Assembly: GCA_964016885.1 (NCBI GenBank)
Contig: OZ024748.1
Span: 47,306,001-47,370,000 of the forward strand
DNA length: 64,000 nucleotides
Source: Eledone cirrhosa
Taxonomy: Eukaryota
Direction: 5' to 3'
The translations under genes were made by a program, and so were the position numbers. Each line of letters starts with the position of its first letter. Within the stretch, counting starts at the first letter, position 1. This document shows, one piece after another, positions 516 through 62,825 of this stretch. Below the pieces are notes generated by a model. It did not search any database. It was not told the DNA's origin and was given only the letters and a program-made list of their open reading frames with translations.

Positions 516-900
516 AACAATAGTTAATATTAACAATTGTTTCATTGATTATGGTGCCTAAAGATTGCTAATCATAATTGTCAGTTATTCTGATGATTTG
601 ATTAGGCATACATCGTATTTAAGATGGAGTGACACAACTTCAAGTGATTAGCAATCATTAGACACCCTAATCAATGAAACAATTGTTAATACTGTAAATA
701 AAAACCTTTTTGTACTGTTGACCATATTATCCTTCACTCTTTCACAATTATTACTCCAAGATTAACCTGCATAGGAATTCCCGGGAACTCCCCACCTAAC
801 TAAGGAAACCTCTTGTTGAGTCAAACAACGCAGTACGTTGAAACTATTCACAATACAGAGTACTCACAACTTGTAACTGGATTACCTATAACAATAATTT
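516..900 (+). mobile_element. Hammerhead-bearing PLE/retrozyme-like fragment with fold-back 5' end
   Basis: 526-573 is an imperfect reverse complement of 645-692; hammerhead at 586-691; 697-750 repeats 158-210; starts at a (TA)n array. Confidence 0.65.
586..691 (+). ncRNA. Type I hammerhead ribozyme, long stem II
   Basis: tatt-CTGATGA(590)-ttgattagg...cctaatcaa-t-GAAA(676)-caattg-TT|aata; stem III is the palindrome CAATTG. Confidence 0.75.
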
Positions 901-1281
901 GTTATCCCCCCCCCCCCCACACAAACACACATACACATATATATATATAAGTATATGAATGTACGTATTGTATATTTAATAATAAACTTATGTTTATTTG
1001 AAAACGTAAGACACAAAAATAGCATTAGCGTAAACAAAGTGAAATAACCGACGATCGTTTCATATTAAGTGTTTATAGTTATCAAGGCTATATATACCTA
1101 GCTCTGTGTGTGTGTGTGTATATATATATTATATATATATATATATATATATATATATATATATATATATATATATATATATATATATATATATATATAT
1201 ATATATATATATATATATATATATATATATTATATATATATATATATTATATATATATATATATATATATATATATATATA

Positions 1282-1863
1282 GGGAACGTAAAATTCCCGA
1301 GATCCATGGACGATTTCTCTCCAGCGATCTCTGTCCCACATTATTGCTGCCATGTCCTGCGTCTCCAACAGACCAGTGTCTGTCCTTGGAGCATCAACAT
1401 ACATTAACCTTGGTCTTCCTCTTCCAGTGTGTCCATGTAGGGGCTCCCACAGGAGCACTGAGTGCAGTGTCAACTCTGGATGTCGGTGAGTATGTCCAGC
1501 TAACATCAGTCTCCTCTGTGTCACTTTCGAGCTGACTTTCGGGAGGCTCCCATACAGCTCTGAGTTTTTCATCCTCAGTGTATACTGATTAATGTTCAGT
1601 ACCATCCTCAGCATTCTCATGTAGCACCCATCCACCATCTGAGTGAGTTTCTTGGTCAGTGTCCAAGTATCAGACCTGTACACCAGCACAGACTCCACTA
1701 CAGCAACGGGAAGCCGCTAGGAGTGGTTGACGACGAATTCCTGTATTTGGGAGCAAAGATTGGGAATACTGAAGATGATGTGGTTGAGAGGAAGAGCAAA
1801 GCCTCGGCGGCGTTCCACAGGCTTGAGATCGGTGTGGAAGTCGGACCTTCGTAAAGGCCTGAA
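1282..1863 (-). mobile_element. RTE LINE 3' fragment with 5' inversion, inside (TA)n
   Basis: Minus 1718-1282: [43 protein letters not shown]. Plus 1720-1863: EFLYLGAKIGNTEDDVVERKSKA..RSVWKSDLRKGL, the immediately upstream RT segment on the opposite strand. Confidence 0.85.
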
Positions 1864-3657
1864 TATATATATATATATATATATATATATATATATATAT
1901 ATATATACGATATTAAATAAATGGAAACTATATTTATAAAACCATATTTATTTCATTATATATATTTCAGGGATATCATATTAACAATATGCTATGCCTT
2001 CCTCAGACAAAATACAATATAAACAGTTTTATAGATAAATACTTGTCGAGTGCTTTTATATCAGTTATAAATATTTACTAGTTGTAACCCAACAATTTAA
2101 ATATAACTTTCCATATATATATATATATATATATAAAATCCTGAGCCATATTTAAGACAGTTCTAATGTGTGTGTGTATATAAATATATATATATATATG
2201 TGTGTGTTGCTGAAAGTGCTTGGATCGTGACAAGAAACTACGTGAGACTTGGAGTTTCGACTCAAGAAATTTCAAATTCTAATAACATACATATACTACT
2301 TTATGTATTAGACACGGTGGCAAAATATGTCTATATTTGCAACATACTATACATGTGTGTATATATATATATATATATATATATATATGTATACACACAC
2401 ACACACACACAGATATATATATATATATATATATATGTGTATGCGTGTGTGTGTGTGTGCGTGTGTGTCAGTGTGTGGGTATCATACTATGAGTAGTCTG
2501 TGTTTATGTGTGTGTATAACAGAATGACTTCCCTGCTTCGGTAGATAAGAAAAATATATGCGTAAATAACAACGTTAGGAGGTGTAAAACTGCAAATAGG
2601 TTGCTTAATAGCTGTACATAGGATCAATAGTTGTAAATAGCGGGTAGACGAGCTTTTAGACAATGAGGTTCTATATATACATATATACATACCTATAAAT
2701 ATATATATATATATATATATATATGTATATAAATATGTATATATATATATATATATATATATATATATATATATATATATATATGTATATAAATATAAAT
2801 ATATATATATATATATATATATATATATATATATATATATGTATATAAATATATATATATATATATATATATATATATATATATGTATATGTATATAAAT
2901 ATATATATATATATATATATATATATATATATATATATATATATATATATATATATATATATATATATATATATATATATATATATATATATATATATAT
3001 ATATATATATATATATATGTATATAAATATATATATATATATATATATATATATATATATATATATATATATATATGTTTGTATCTCTCTCTCTCTATGT
3101 ATATATATATATATATATTCATGTATGTATAAACACACATATGTATATAATTTTGATTGTTCGCAAAATTAGTAATGGATGAACATTTACATTTTGACAA
3201 ACATTAACTGTAACTATGATATATCTATATCAATATATATATATATATATATGTGTGTGTGTGTGTGTGTGTCTGTGTGTGTGTGTGTGTGTGTGTGTGT
3301 GTGTGTGTGTGTGTGTGTGTGTGTGTGTGTGTGTGTGTGTGTGTGTGTGTGTGTGTGTGTGAGTGGGTGTGTGAATGAATCGATATATGTAAGTATGCAT
3401 TTATATTCATACATACATAATGCATATTTCTCTATTGTAATCTAGACATCTACACATTAACTCATATAGACACATATCTGAATATACACACATATATATA
3501 TATATATATATATATATACACACAAACCATTTACAGAAAAGAAATATTTTCTTCATTATTACAAAGTATCCATATACATAATGGACATACATAATTATAT
3601 GGTATATATAAATATATATATATATATATATATATATACCATATAATTATGTATATA

Positions 3658-59551: not shown

Positions 59552-60058
59552 TATATATATATATATATATATATAAGTCCAAAGAATCATTAGATGAAAT
59601 ATATACAGTATTTCCTCTCCCAATCAGCATAAATTAACCACATAAAAAATCATTTAAACGAGGCTATAAGTTTAAAACGTACTTATGAAGAAATAATAGA
59701 CAAATGATACAGATTCTTTTCCGCGATGTACAACCATATGACACTTATCTAATTATTTGCTCTAGCCACATCGAGCCACACCGTGAATGGTTGCCAAACT
59801 CATATATGTATCTGTGATTATATCTAATTATATATATATACCCTTTGATTTCATATATATATATATATATATATATATATATATATATATATATATATAT
59901 ATATATATATATCACGATAAATTAACGGAGCCATAGACTCTCGCTATTCCCTGTCAATAATGTGCTCAAAGGAGAAGGAATCCTGAGCTCTTTAAAATAC
60001 AATATGTTGAAAAGGTAACACACTAGAGAGAGATAGTGGGCCATCAATAAAACAGGGA

Positions 60059-60562
60059 AAAACCACCAGTGTATGGAATCTATAACCTATGAAAAGCAGA
60101 GTAGACACACGATAATTAAAGATATAAATTAAAGTGTAAATACAAACCTCTATAACTATATAACACACGTACAAATCCAAAGAGATCTGTTTCGCCAGTA
60201 AGTTGTTGACAGAAATGAAATAGCCCATGGTTCATCAGCGTGTGTAAGGCTATACATTTCAGACAACACTAAGAGAATTTAAAGCAACCGTCCAGCTACA
60301 CGTGGGAGAGAGAAGTCACGGCGTGTTTAGGGCAGTGAACCAGTGGCTTCTGAGGGAGGAGCTGCTAGAAAGGGCAGCCCAAAAACCACTCAGAGAAGTC
60401 AAACAGAGAGAGCGGAAAGACTGTTATAAGGAGGGAAATATGGATTTGTACGGGTGTTATATAGTTATAGAGGTATGTATTTACACTTTAATTTATATCT
60501 TTAATTATCGTGTGTCTACTCTGCCTTTCATAGGTTATCGATTCCATACACTGGTGGTTTTT
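60059..60562. repeat. About 120-bp inverted repeat with 260-bp spacer in a TA-bounded island
   Basis: 60059-60179 versus 60440-60562; minus-strand CTGATGA..GAAAcagatct at 60182-60238 lacks stem I. Confidence 0.75.
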
Positions 60563-62780
60563 CGCTCCTTAAAATATTGTATATATATATATATATAAAC
60601 AAATAGTAAAATGGAAAAAAAATTACAGTAGAAAATGCTGGAGGGATTTTTTCAGTATAATATCAAAATATTTATTTATAAAGTAGGGATTTCCGAATTT
60701 AATCGTGTACCGGTTTCAATTTTATTTTATTTTTTCATGCTATATATATATATATTAAAATAACAGATTAAAGTTTAAGTAAAGAATCACTGGTTTCACC
60801 CTTAACGGGATCTTCTGAATCTCTAAGCTAATATATATATATATATATATATATATATTAAAATAACAGGTTGAAGTTTAAGCAAAGAATCACTCCTTTC
60901 ACCCTTAATTTCAGAAGATCCCGTTAAGGGAGAAAGCACCGATTCTTTGCTTAAACTTTAATCTGTTATTTTAATAAATATTTGCTCTACGGTTCTTATA
61001 TATTTGATATATATTTATCCTTATCGAGCCCTCTTTGGATTTTAGTCTTCACATTTGTTATTACTATATATATATATATATATATATATATATATATATA
61101 TATATATATATATATAAGGTAGTACCTTGATTAAATCTTAACCATTTAACATCTCATTATATTTTGCCTGATGAGGACGTACAGCCGAAATATGTATAAT
61201 AAAATGTAATTGATAAAAAGAACATCTATTTTATTAATATTTGTATTTTAATATTAATAACTCTGGAAAATAATTTAAATGTAGAGTGCTTCCAATCTAC
61301 TGTAAAACTCATTCTTTGATGTACTCATTGAATATTGTTTAACTCTTTAATATATAGGAGGAGGTTATCTTTTTGCATTTGCATTCTTTATTCTATGTCC
61401 ATACCTGCATTGTTTTGGCTTTATTATACATATACAAACGTTTATACCTCTTTAATATATATATATATATATATATATATATATATATATATATGTGTAT
61501 ATAAATATATATATATATATATATGTGTGTGTGTGTGTGTGTGTGTGTGTGTGTGTGTGTGTGTGTGTGTGTGTGTGTGTGTGTGTGTGTGTGTGTGTGT
61601 ACAGGTATGTGCGTGTGTCAGCATTGGAAGGTTGAAAGGTATAACATTGAGTACTTATAATGTTGATCAATTCTTTGAATAGATTAATGTCAAAAGCAAC
61701 CCTTGCTGGAAGTTTGAACTGATATGGGAGAGGGTTAAATCTAAACATACAAATGCATTTAGACCTAGTCACAAACATGTATAAAGCATTGCCAACTCTT
61801 GCACGGCGGCCATTATATAAATTGATATAAATGACATAACACTTCTGTACGTATACATATATATGTATATATATATATATGTGTGTGAGTGTGTGTGTGT
61901 CTACGTATATATATATATATATGTGTGTGTGTGTGTGTGTGTGTGTGTGTGTGTGTGTGTGTGTGTGTGTGTGTGTAAATATATCTATATATATATATAA
62001 ATATATATATATGTATGCATAAATGTATATATATGTATATATATATATAAATGTATATATATGTATATATATATATATATATATGCATATATGTATATGT
62101 CTGTGTATATATGTATATATATAAATATATATATATATATATATATATATATATATATATATATATATATATATATATAGAGAGAGAGAGAGAGAGAGAG
62201 AGAGAGAGAGAGAGAGAGAGAGAGAGTGGTGTGTATCACGTATATATATGTATGCATGTAAATATGTGTCTATAGGTATGCCAACAAACATAATATATTA
62301 TGCTGCCTATGTTGTATATGTTGACAATTCTATAAAGTGTATATACCGTATAACAATAAGCCAGGGCTGCAGTGTCTATAAATGAGAGACAAACTCCTGC
62401 ATCAACGTGAAATGTCTTACCAAGGATTGCCATTAGCTTCTTGAAAACTAAAGAAAACTGTAGAAATTTTAACAGAAATTTCCATTTCATTTTCTCATTC
62501 ACTACTTTAAAACTCTTAAATAAATGTATGTAGATAATATACAGTGTGTGAGCGTGTATTCATGTATATATATATATATATATATATATATATATATATA
62601 TATATATATATATATATATATATACGTGTGTGTGTGTGTGTGGGTGTGTGTGTGTGTGTCTGTGTGTGTGTGTGTGTGTGTGTGTGTGTGTGTGTGTGTG
62701 AGAGAGAGGGTGTATTCATGTATATATATATAGAGAGAGAGAAATCACATGAATCAAAGTTCTGTTCAAACCATTTATTA

Positions 62781-62825
62781 GCTTACAATTGTTTCGTCCA
62801 AATCGAGGTTTGGAGTCTTCGGAGC
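62781..62825 (-). ncRNA. Type I hammerhead-like motif, CCGAAGA core
   Basis: gct-CCGAAGA-c-tccaaa-cctcga-tttgga-c-GAAA-caattg-TA|agc. Confidence 0.7.

Follow-up and report, generated by a model that had tools for sequence, protein, structure and literature searches.

The question raised by this 64,000-nucleotide stretch of the Eledone cirrhosa genome (contig OZ024748.1 of assembly GCA_964016885.1, positions 47,306,001 to 47,370,000; here called the window) is what the short islands between its (TA)n arrays are and how they came to lie there. The window sits on a 60.6-Mb contig of a 3.0-Gb genome and is a mosaic of simple repeats and short islands, in which Tandem Repeats Finder masked 26.7 kb and left 35.7 kb of islands unmasked. 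Our results suggest, with a probability that we put at about 0.8, that the islands are the 5'-truncated 3' ends of many families of Penelope-like elements (PLEs) and of non-coding families dependent on them, all with a hammerhead motif at the end, that the elements' GIY-YIG nuclease likely inserted them into (TA)n, and that one family, X, has a predicted fold in which the core runs in the order cleavage block, GAAA block, CUGANGA block (S-G-C).

A strict type I motif was defined as CUGANGA, stem II, GAAA, stem III, UH and a stem I of at least 4 bp. The window contains 18 such motifs, against a mean of 0.09 and a maximum of 2 in 150 local dinucleotide shuffles, and 43 bare CUGANGA cores against 14.7 in shuffles. 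The structural search accepted a stem II with a mismatched or bulged base, and a search requiring a base pair at this foot missed most families. With A or C permitted at core position 4 the count rose to 22; a variant-core search gave no matches to a U4G core or to U3 without A8. By our tally about 20 hammerhead families are present, so that an earlier sequence-only reading of this DNA, which had claimed about 30 motifs from more than 10 families and had called for shuffled controls, holds on this point, motif density being near zero in the shuffles. Among the 22 positions listed there, ten are strict motifs with a canonical core (590, 3810, 5045, 5165, 19709, 28121, 28605-, 32288, 45130 and 50086; a sign after a position gives the strand) and four pass with an altered core position 4 (11463, 22239, 60912 and 62822-), 14 in all, while the other 8 are decayed or split members of real families that are intact elsewhere (21002, 25953, 26834, 39210, listed as 39211, 39415, 49316, 50369 and 61168). 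Eight further strict motifs (2006-, 28082-, 29418-, 39202-, 42956-, 42964+, 50058- and 60238-), 13 half motifs of a U3-A8 family and four copies of family X had not been listed. The statement that most non-simple islands carry a motif was too broad: a strict motif occurs in 18 of 100 TA-bounded segments, a strict or decayed one in 28, and 35 are reached when half motifs are added; some of the motif-free segments are PLE ends broken off downstream of the ribozyme.

The low-complexity context, and the false matches included among singleton clusters in the genome sample described below (3 to 12 motifs in shuffles versus 112), could suggest chance matches in AT-rich DNA or fold-back sequencing artefacts. 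This reading is refuted by the shuffle and reversed-pattern controls, which stayed near zero, and the two arms of head-to-head pairs are about 5% divergent, with 3' ends that are unequal and specific to the family; we give it next to no weight. Simple-repeat masking had been expected to hide the motifs, which is not supported, the islands having stayed unmasked; it is the Rfam threshold that misses them. At gathering thresholds (Hammerhead_1) there were no matches in the window and in 8 loci, and the gathering score was reached by 18 of 74 scored candidates elsewhere in the genome. At an E-value of 10, only microRNA look-alikes of simple repeats were found among the window matches listed (150 of 564).

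Compensatory change was seen in the stems of several type I families. Stem II of family A has 7 pairs with compensatory change versus 2.9 in shuffles (14 rows selected by the analyst), the previously noted stem I covariation of family B (gcttc/gaagc versus gattc/gaatc) was confirmed, and compensatory stem changes in B, D, E and U4C were recognized by inspection. The cleavage triplet of family B is GUA, following a 3-bp stem III. In 8 of the 14 families examined, loop III is a full or near palindrome, and dimers are therefore predicted; T, 29418 and 60238, whose stems III are long, could work by themselves. The U4A core is present in 100 of the 100 copies listed of 19,574. U3-A8 and U4C cores are already known in nature (PMC3088659, PMC4209133), and the term did not occur in any paper returned by a literature search on natural U4A variants, which is weak evidence. 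The type I motifs are predicted self-cleaving hammerheads.

On the genomic scale, our sample consisted of 88 fixed 10-kb stretches (880 kb) elsewhere in the genome, which contained 112 motifs at a score of at least 11, against 3 to 12 in six shuffles. Clustered together with the motifs of the window and of 24 neighbouring stretches, they form 46 clusters, 22 of them with at least two members. Weighted extrapolation gives 278,000 canonical-core motifs (200,000-362,000) and 364,000 with all cores. Exact whole-genome counts of four patterns, which cover the cores and only part of the stems, are 80,126 for the A superfamily, 23,606 for B, 19,574 for U4A and 11,150 for X (reversed control 0 each), a total of 134,456 copies; the same patterns extrapolated from the sample amount to 187,235, about 1.4-fold above the exact number. 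Because the sample runs high by this factor, the sampled estimates were scaled down, and the genome total is likely 2-3.5 x 10^5 hammerhead motifs. The rate of one ribozyme per 2 kb read from the window is not a genome rate, since the window, with 17 motifs at a score of at least 11 (266 per Mb), has about twice the density of the sampled stretches.

The coding frames upstream connect these motifs with their carriers. Seven hammerhead families were traced into frames with reverse transcriptase (RT) and GIY-YIG domains, six of the Hydra clade and one Neptune-like, which bears out the Penelope-like origin that had been proposed. Hydra-clade frames lie 0.9-1.9 kb upstream of families B1 (3 loci), T (2 loci, spacer 96%) and U4A (3 loci), with the same spacer, and families A, G and 49316 stand behind Hydra-clade frames at one locus each. 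All six Hydra-type frames have a CxCx5C linker, CxxC and CxH placed around E and N (CxxC before E) plus a C-terminal GIY-YIG and lack CCHH, and LYRDD occurs in three of the Hydra-clade loci. The linked copies are 5' truncated; an unlinked copy (L169) has SDKTN and RWR, the published N-terminal motifs being DKT and RWK. Assignment to the Hydra clade was made by frame motifs, and likeness to Hydra-1_Obim was judged by eye from the published supplement. The 3' untranslated part of the B1 Hydra element itself holds TA/TG microsatellites (L010, L021, L023), so that these elements also spread simple repeats. Of the two loci L165:6827 and L166:6606, L165 has an inverted copy of subfamily B2 upstream of a B1 element, possibly through a two-template insertion or a separate one.

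The ribozyme of family N lies in the pseudo-long terminal repeat (pLTR), 200-310 nt past the stop of a Neptune-like frame (19 locus rows). The GIY-YIG remnant in the window has 17,205 candidate relatives. Among them is a 1329-aa open frame in tandem with a period of 4423; it has RT motifs, a C-terminal nuclease and a Cx4CxxC linker. Pfam recognized no family in frame P0001 (L044:1043-5029) or in a 1241-aa frame; read directly, the motifs of P0001 (RT, Cx2-5CxxC linker, C-terminal GIY-YIG, tandem pLTR with hammerhead) are those of Neptune/Nematis PLEs. The same frame has a long Asn/Thr/His-rich insert before RT, resembling the N-rich inserts described for rotifer Penelopes (PMC3846280). Links of families B2 (L177) and E (L168) to Neptune-like frames were rejected, both lying beyond that element's own TA junction. 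In a Neptune-like family at L174 and L177, about 1.1-1.3 kb after a frame ending in NKYGPRLNTSP, both copies have a minimal U3-A8 motif with GCAA replacing GAAA, possibly a fixed core variant or a dead ribozyme. Other families occur as non-coding tandem units with one ribozyme each, at spacings of 310, 316, 469, 478 and 592 nt, and this non-LTR (long terminal repeat) retrozyme layout is found in families X, E, V and L046.

Much of this agrees with known systems. The Hydra-clade PLEs described by Craig et al. (2021, PMC8557442), Hydra-1_Obim included, share with those of E. cirrhosa the C-terminal GIY-YIG without CCHH, the CxCx5C linker, insertion into (TA)n (for the clade said to be almost invariable), canonical pLTR hammerheads, often with a U-U mismatch at the stem II foot, and inverted 5'-truncated partners. 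The account given there includes one octopus family out of a "small number", whereas here at least six Hydra-type families carry different ribozymes, some with U4A or U3-A8 cores, and attain copy numbers in the tens of thousands per family. Because such behaviour has already been described for this clade, the PLE origin and the TA niche are less surprising than first rated, and the observation and inference of the sequence-only reading, although right, for the most part restate what is known of the Hydra clade, at a scale that had gone unreported. The minimal hammerheads of PLEs and the non-LTR retrozymes (PMC4209133, PMC7229834, bioRxiv 2026.07.22.740005) are reported with the same type I topology and palindromic loop III, a mismatch or bulge at the foot of stem II, U3-A8 covariation and tandem non-coding units of a few hundred nt. 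E. cirrhosa differs from them in family diversity, in its dispersed, TA-bound layout and in number, the 134,456 copies of four patterns comparing with the 126,247 hammerheads given for axolotl (PMC7229834) and about 9,000 for Xenopus (PMC4209133). For giant squid, 235 Rfam matches are given (PMC6962438), and a 2026 repeat annotation of Octopus vulgaris has 31 recently active PLE families, its accessible text making no mention of ribozymes (PMC13282606); our literature search for hammerheads together with octopus or cephalopod found no such survey. What is new here is the scale, the variant cores fixed across whole families and family X; Hydra hammerheads and (TA)n insertion are known.

The position of the motifs relative to TA arrays is strongly polarized. 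Of 173 motifs, 76% have a TA array no more than 150 nt 3' of the cleavage site, against 22% with one on the 5' side and 19% for random non-repeat positions, and in six families 452 of 537 copies pass directly into TA at the 3' end. The control, a short interspersed nuclear element that we take to be octopus-type, is not TA bound (TA within 40 nt in 33/258 and 23/258 copies), and the proposed (TA)n landing niche is upheld. In each family the 3' ends fall mainly at two points, which are separated by 50-90 nt and coincide with TA-like letters within the element. Head-to-head pairs combine one long and one short 3' end in 124 of 128 cases, and their arms share non-majority letters above shuffled partners in families T (85 versus 28), B1 (82 versus 32), A (121 versus 44) and N (49 versus 24). 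An optional "tail" on one of two inverted pLTRs has been described for Neptune/Nematis PLEs (PMC8557442, PMC3846280), which also share the Cx2-5CxxC linker, the microsatellite bias and palindromes at the inverted junction; the tail here is 60-90 nt long rather than 30-40 and is found on exactly one arm in those 124 pairs.

The 3' polarity, and the TA-like letters at element ends, which could seed expansion, would also be expected if the arrays were made by the elements, as tails added at insertion in the manner of L2/CR1-type elements, and were not pre-existing targets. However, tandem and tailed copies run into unique sequence without TA at the same junction, unrelated families stack within one TA array, both ends of head-to-head pairs lie in TA, and the linker zinc motifs tied to microsatellite targeting (PMC8557442) are present, which makes this origin of the arrays improbable. 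Insertion into existing TA arrays is the reading that we retain. A pile-up of 5' ends at the cut, sought as a trace of cleavage in vivo, was not found in six families (2 of 327 rows within 6 nt); since copies span the cleavage site and their 5' ends are not gathered there, the copied RNA appears to have been uncleaved or re-ligated.

We propose that the element-encoded GIY-YIG nuclease cuts the TA array and that each of the two broken ends would then act as a primer for reverse transcription at AU-rich sites shortly downstream of the ribozyme, one of which lies at the true end and the other 60-90 nt inside; the long and short head-to-head pairs would result. The RNA template would have escaped cleavage or been joined again afterwards (circular or tandem). 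For the master copies, the use of the ribozyme would be to divide tandem transcripts into single units, mostly in dimeric form via the palindromic loop III, and most genomic copies would be dead passengers.

Family X differs from all of these motifs in the order of its parts. In its four window copies (4406-, 4930+, 8506- and 47097-) CUGAYGA is preceded, not followed, by GAAA, and in 23 aligned copies the blocks stand in the order S-G-C, a non-circular permutation; inspection of the tandem unit by eye revealed no conventional type I, II or III fold. A generic S-G-C descriptor gave 5 matches in the 880 kb, all of family X, versus 0 in 8 shuffles. Stem I crosses stem III (pseudoknotted), with changes on both sides in 4 of 6 stem I pairs and 1 of 5 stem III pairs, and stem II is a single direct pair, 10.1-11.1, covarying as A-U, G-C and G-U. 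Across these stems and four further helices, 95.7% of 759 cells are paired; 12 pairs change on both sides versus 6.5 in shuffles (0 of 500 as high), and sliding the alignment by 1-3 columns lowers pairing to 24-47%. The letters beside the 10.1-11.1 pair form helices with the 5' flank to either side of a covarying hairpin and in this way close a four-way junction; in one subfamily one of these helices persists via a one-letter shift. Between stem III and its extension there is a kink-turn pattern with a variable 3-nt bulge and tandem G-A pairs (23/23 on one strand, 21/23 on the other); kink-turns have G-A and A-G pairs to either side of a 3-nt bulge that lies between two helices (PMC9521606). 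The loop in X would supply the bend that the fold needs.

Deviating letters occupy 2 of 253 cells at the 11 catalytic positions of X, compared with 199 of 920 in the remaining unpaired columns, while N7 is free and H17 is non-G in 22 of 23 copies. A conserved structured RNA derived from a hammerhead that no longer cuts, for example a protein-binding or packaging signal, would be compatible with a stem II of one pair, and Naiad PLEs have been reported with half cores fitting no descriptor (PMC8557442); against this, all 11 catalytic positions are kept and N7 and H17 vary exactly as hammerhead chemistry allows, in subfamilies down to 66% identity, and we consider such a loss of cutting unlikely.

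X forms units of about 510-750 nt in tandem arrays, with no frame upstream in 10 of 10 loci and TA within 130 nt in 36 of 43 copies, its ends lying at two main distances. The tandem arrays, the 1-2 nt that alone connect the stem III extension to stem I and the common need of metazoan type I motifs for two copies (PMC4209133, PMC7229834) raise the possibility of a real hammerhead that is not a cis-folding permuted one, assembling in trans or across tandem units when block C of a neighbour docks on the S-G hairpin. In favor of folding in cis, the four helices around stem II close the junction with 0, 0, 1 and 0 unpaired letters, the kink-turn-like loop provides the required bend, and stem I is joined to stem II by 4-5 nt, similar to the short connection in type-SGC ribozymes that have been tested (PMC10085705). 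Assembly in trans is therefore doubtful, if less so than a loss of cutting. In our preferred reading X would be a retrozyme moved in trans. Its ribozyme would form a double pseudoknot in cis, with the four-way junction capping a 1-bp stem II and the kink-turn bending the stem III extension back toward the ends of stems I and II.

The type-SGC hammerheads, which were shown to cleave (Eckert et al. 2023, PMC10085705), have in common with X the S-G-C order, the crossing stems I, II and III, all core letters and the short link from stem I to stem II. In the accessible part of that paper they come only from metatranscriptomes and from no genome of a known organism, whereas X resides in an animal retroelement; our literature search from 2023 on gave no genomic S-G-C case, nor did a search give one with a kink-turn, and the X pattern found nothing in metagenome or viral contigs. 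The helper helix joining the far sides of stems I and II has no counterpart in X, which has junctions P1-P4 instead, the neighbours pairing with the 5' flank. Because it lacks this helix and a multi-pair stem II, we did not file X as the published type-SGC motif; it would rather be a new architecture working like that class. On balance we incline to the view that E. cirrhosa has at least 11,000 S-G-C hammerheads in which a four-way junction replaces stem II, with a kink-turn through which an L7Ae-family host protein could control cleavage, on a (TA)n-targeted retrozyme, within the densest hammerhead population yet counted.

Several observations weigh against these interpretations. The 23 X rows form 10 clusters, and this relatedness inflates the compensatory counts, leaving few independent changes. 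The one direct pair of X stem II is broken in 2 of 23 copies, RNAfold finds nested helices plus pairings competing with stem I, and, among type-SGC ribozymes, those that were tested required a normal stem II together with a different helper helix (PMC10085705). For the type I motifs, the monomer minimum-energy fold reaches the hammerhead junction in only about 2-3 of 10, and the whole ribozyme is kept in only 6 of 130 family T copies, so that most copies are passengers. The frame links of families A, G and 49316 are each based on a single locus, and no coding parent was found for families X, D, E, C and others. The TA counts of B1 are inflated, as the query itself ended in TA, and U4A arms show no excess of shared variants (15 versus 15). 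The arm reaching further 5' is split 28 versus 33, which does not support a fixed first arm with fold-back and fits priming from both broken ends better; later loss of hairpin centres could blur which arm reaches further.

The features of the window are collected in Table 1. Besides these, a U3-A8 motif with a palindromic loop III and GUC (1055-1090, minus strand, score 13.5) has no homologue among the loci. TA-bound repeats of hairpin layout without a recognized ribozyme lie at 24109-24370, 26920-27296, 51687-51942 and 10570-10690 and at 10228-10483 with 11891-12146; these families have 11-21 copies each in the loci, and R10228 may hold a decayed core. Two remnants of coding ends of the long interspersed nuclear element type were recognized by eye at 36900-37390 and 37860-38625, one with a restriction-like nuclease tail and one with an RTE-like tail with zinc-finger motifs. 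Minisatellites occupy 5805-7317 (period 87) and 14959-16072 (period 42).

Table 1. Hammerhead-bearing and related features of the window (positions counted from its first nucleotide).
Feature	Position	Strand	Remarks
Family X, complete S-G-C candidate	4840..4941	+	Predicted cut after 4886; GAAA block; CUGAUGA at 4930; short 3' end into TA at ~4950
Family X, second complete S-G-C candidate	47086..47187	-	Predicted cut after 47141; core at 47097
Family X, decayed copy	8445..8632	-	G block changed to GGAA; long 3' end; core 8506-
Family X, 5'-truncated copy	4343..4451	-	Long 3' end; core 4406-; head-to-head partner of 4930 copy
Type I hammerhead, long stem II, palindromic loop III	583..694	+	Strict; one homologue in loci
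Family A type I hammerhead	1945..2018	-	Strict
Family A type I hammerhead	3798..3869	+	Strict
Family D type I hammerhead	5033..5102	+	Strict
Family E type I hammerhead	5156..5240	+	Strict; elsewhere tandem units of 459-478 nt, retrozyme-like
Family T hairpin, two half motifs	9989..10177	.	5'-truncated within stem II; half = GAAA, stem III, GUC, stem I 3' strand
Further family T hairpins	32481-32670, 45418-45553 (one arm), 46858-47055, 48337-48529, 51974-52176, 52914-53106
Type I motif, CAGAUGA core	11459..11567	+	Single copy in sample
Broken 3' end of Neptune/Nematis-like PLE frame	12533..13083	+	Linker zinc motif, GIY-YIG; tblastn 84% to P0001
Family N, decayed pLTR hammerhead	13273..13330	+	Belongs to PLE at 12533..13083; second decayed copy 25435-25486 (-)
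Family B2 hammerhead	19700..19760	+	Strict; decayed B copies 20966-21052, 26829-26884
U4A family (CAGAAGA core)	22227..22298	+	Copy mutated to CCGAAGA
Other U4A family copies	49542-49613 (-), 60758-60826 (-), 60861-60971 (hairpin)
Family A, decayed	25945..26010	+	Also 39403-39474, 44443-44474 (-, half); A-like 61156-61210
Family B1 head-to-head pair	28031..28172	.	Long and short 3' ends in TA; likewise 39151-39261, 42905-43015
Type I hammerhead, loop III fully palindromic	28522..28617	-	Strict
Type I hammerhead, stem III 7 bp	29342..29428	-	Strict
Family A type I hammerhead, young	32276..32351	+	40/40 scored genomic copies identical across 111 nt
Family A type I hammerhead	45117..45194	+	Strict
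Long-stem-II family, inversion-scrambled	49183..49460	.	Listed earlier as 49316
Family C head-to-head pair, two strict motifs	50000..50144	.	50058-, 50086+
Family G head-to-head pair, stem II decayed	50222..50463	.	50315-, 50369+
Minimal U3-A8 hammerhead of Neptune-like family	51024..51062	-
Type I hammerhead, stem III 7 bp	60162..60245	-	Strict
U4C family hammerhead, CCGAAGA core	62772..62834	-	Core in 19/19 identical search copies and in divergent subfamilies

These results turn what was a footnote, one octopus Hydra family and the Rfam matches in giant squid, into a large component of a genome, whose ribozyme motifs number well over 10^5, belong to dozens of families and escape standard RNA annotation. 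They provide a natural series of core variants (U4A, U4C and U3-A8) fixed in successful families, and copies numerous enough for the mechanism of PLE insertion to be read from their junctions. If X cuts, it would be the first rearranged hammerhead with covariation in a cellular genome and the first such in an animal, it would show that an animal retroelement gave rise to the permutation, and structure and regulation could be studied on a 105-nt construct that has a kink-turn by nature.

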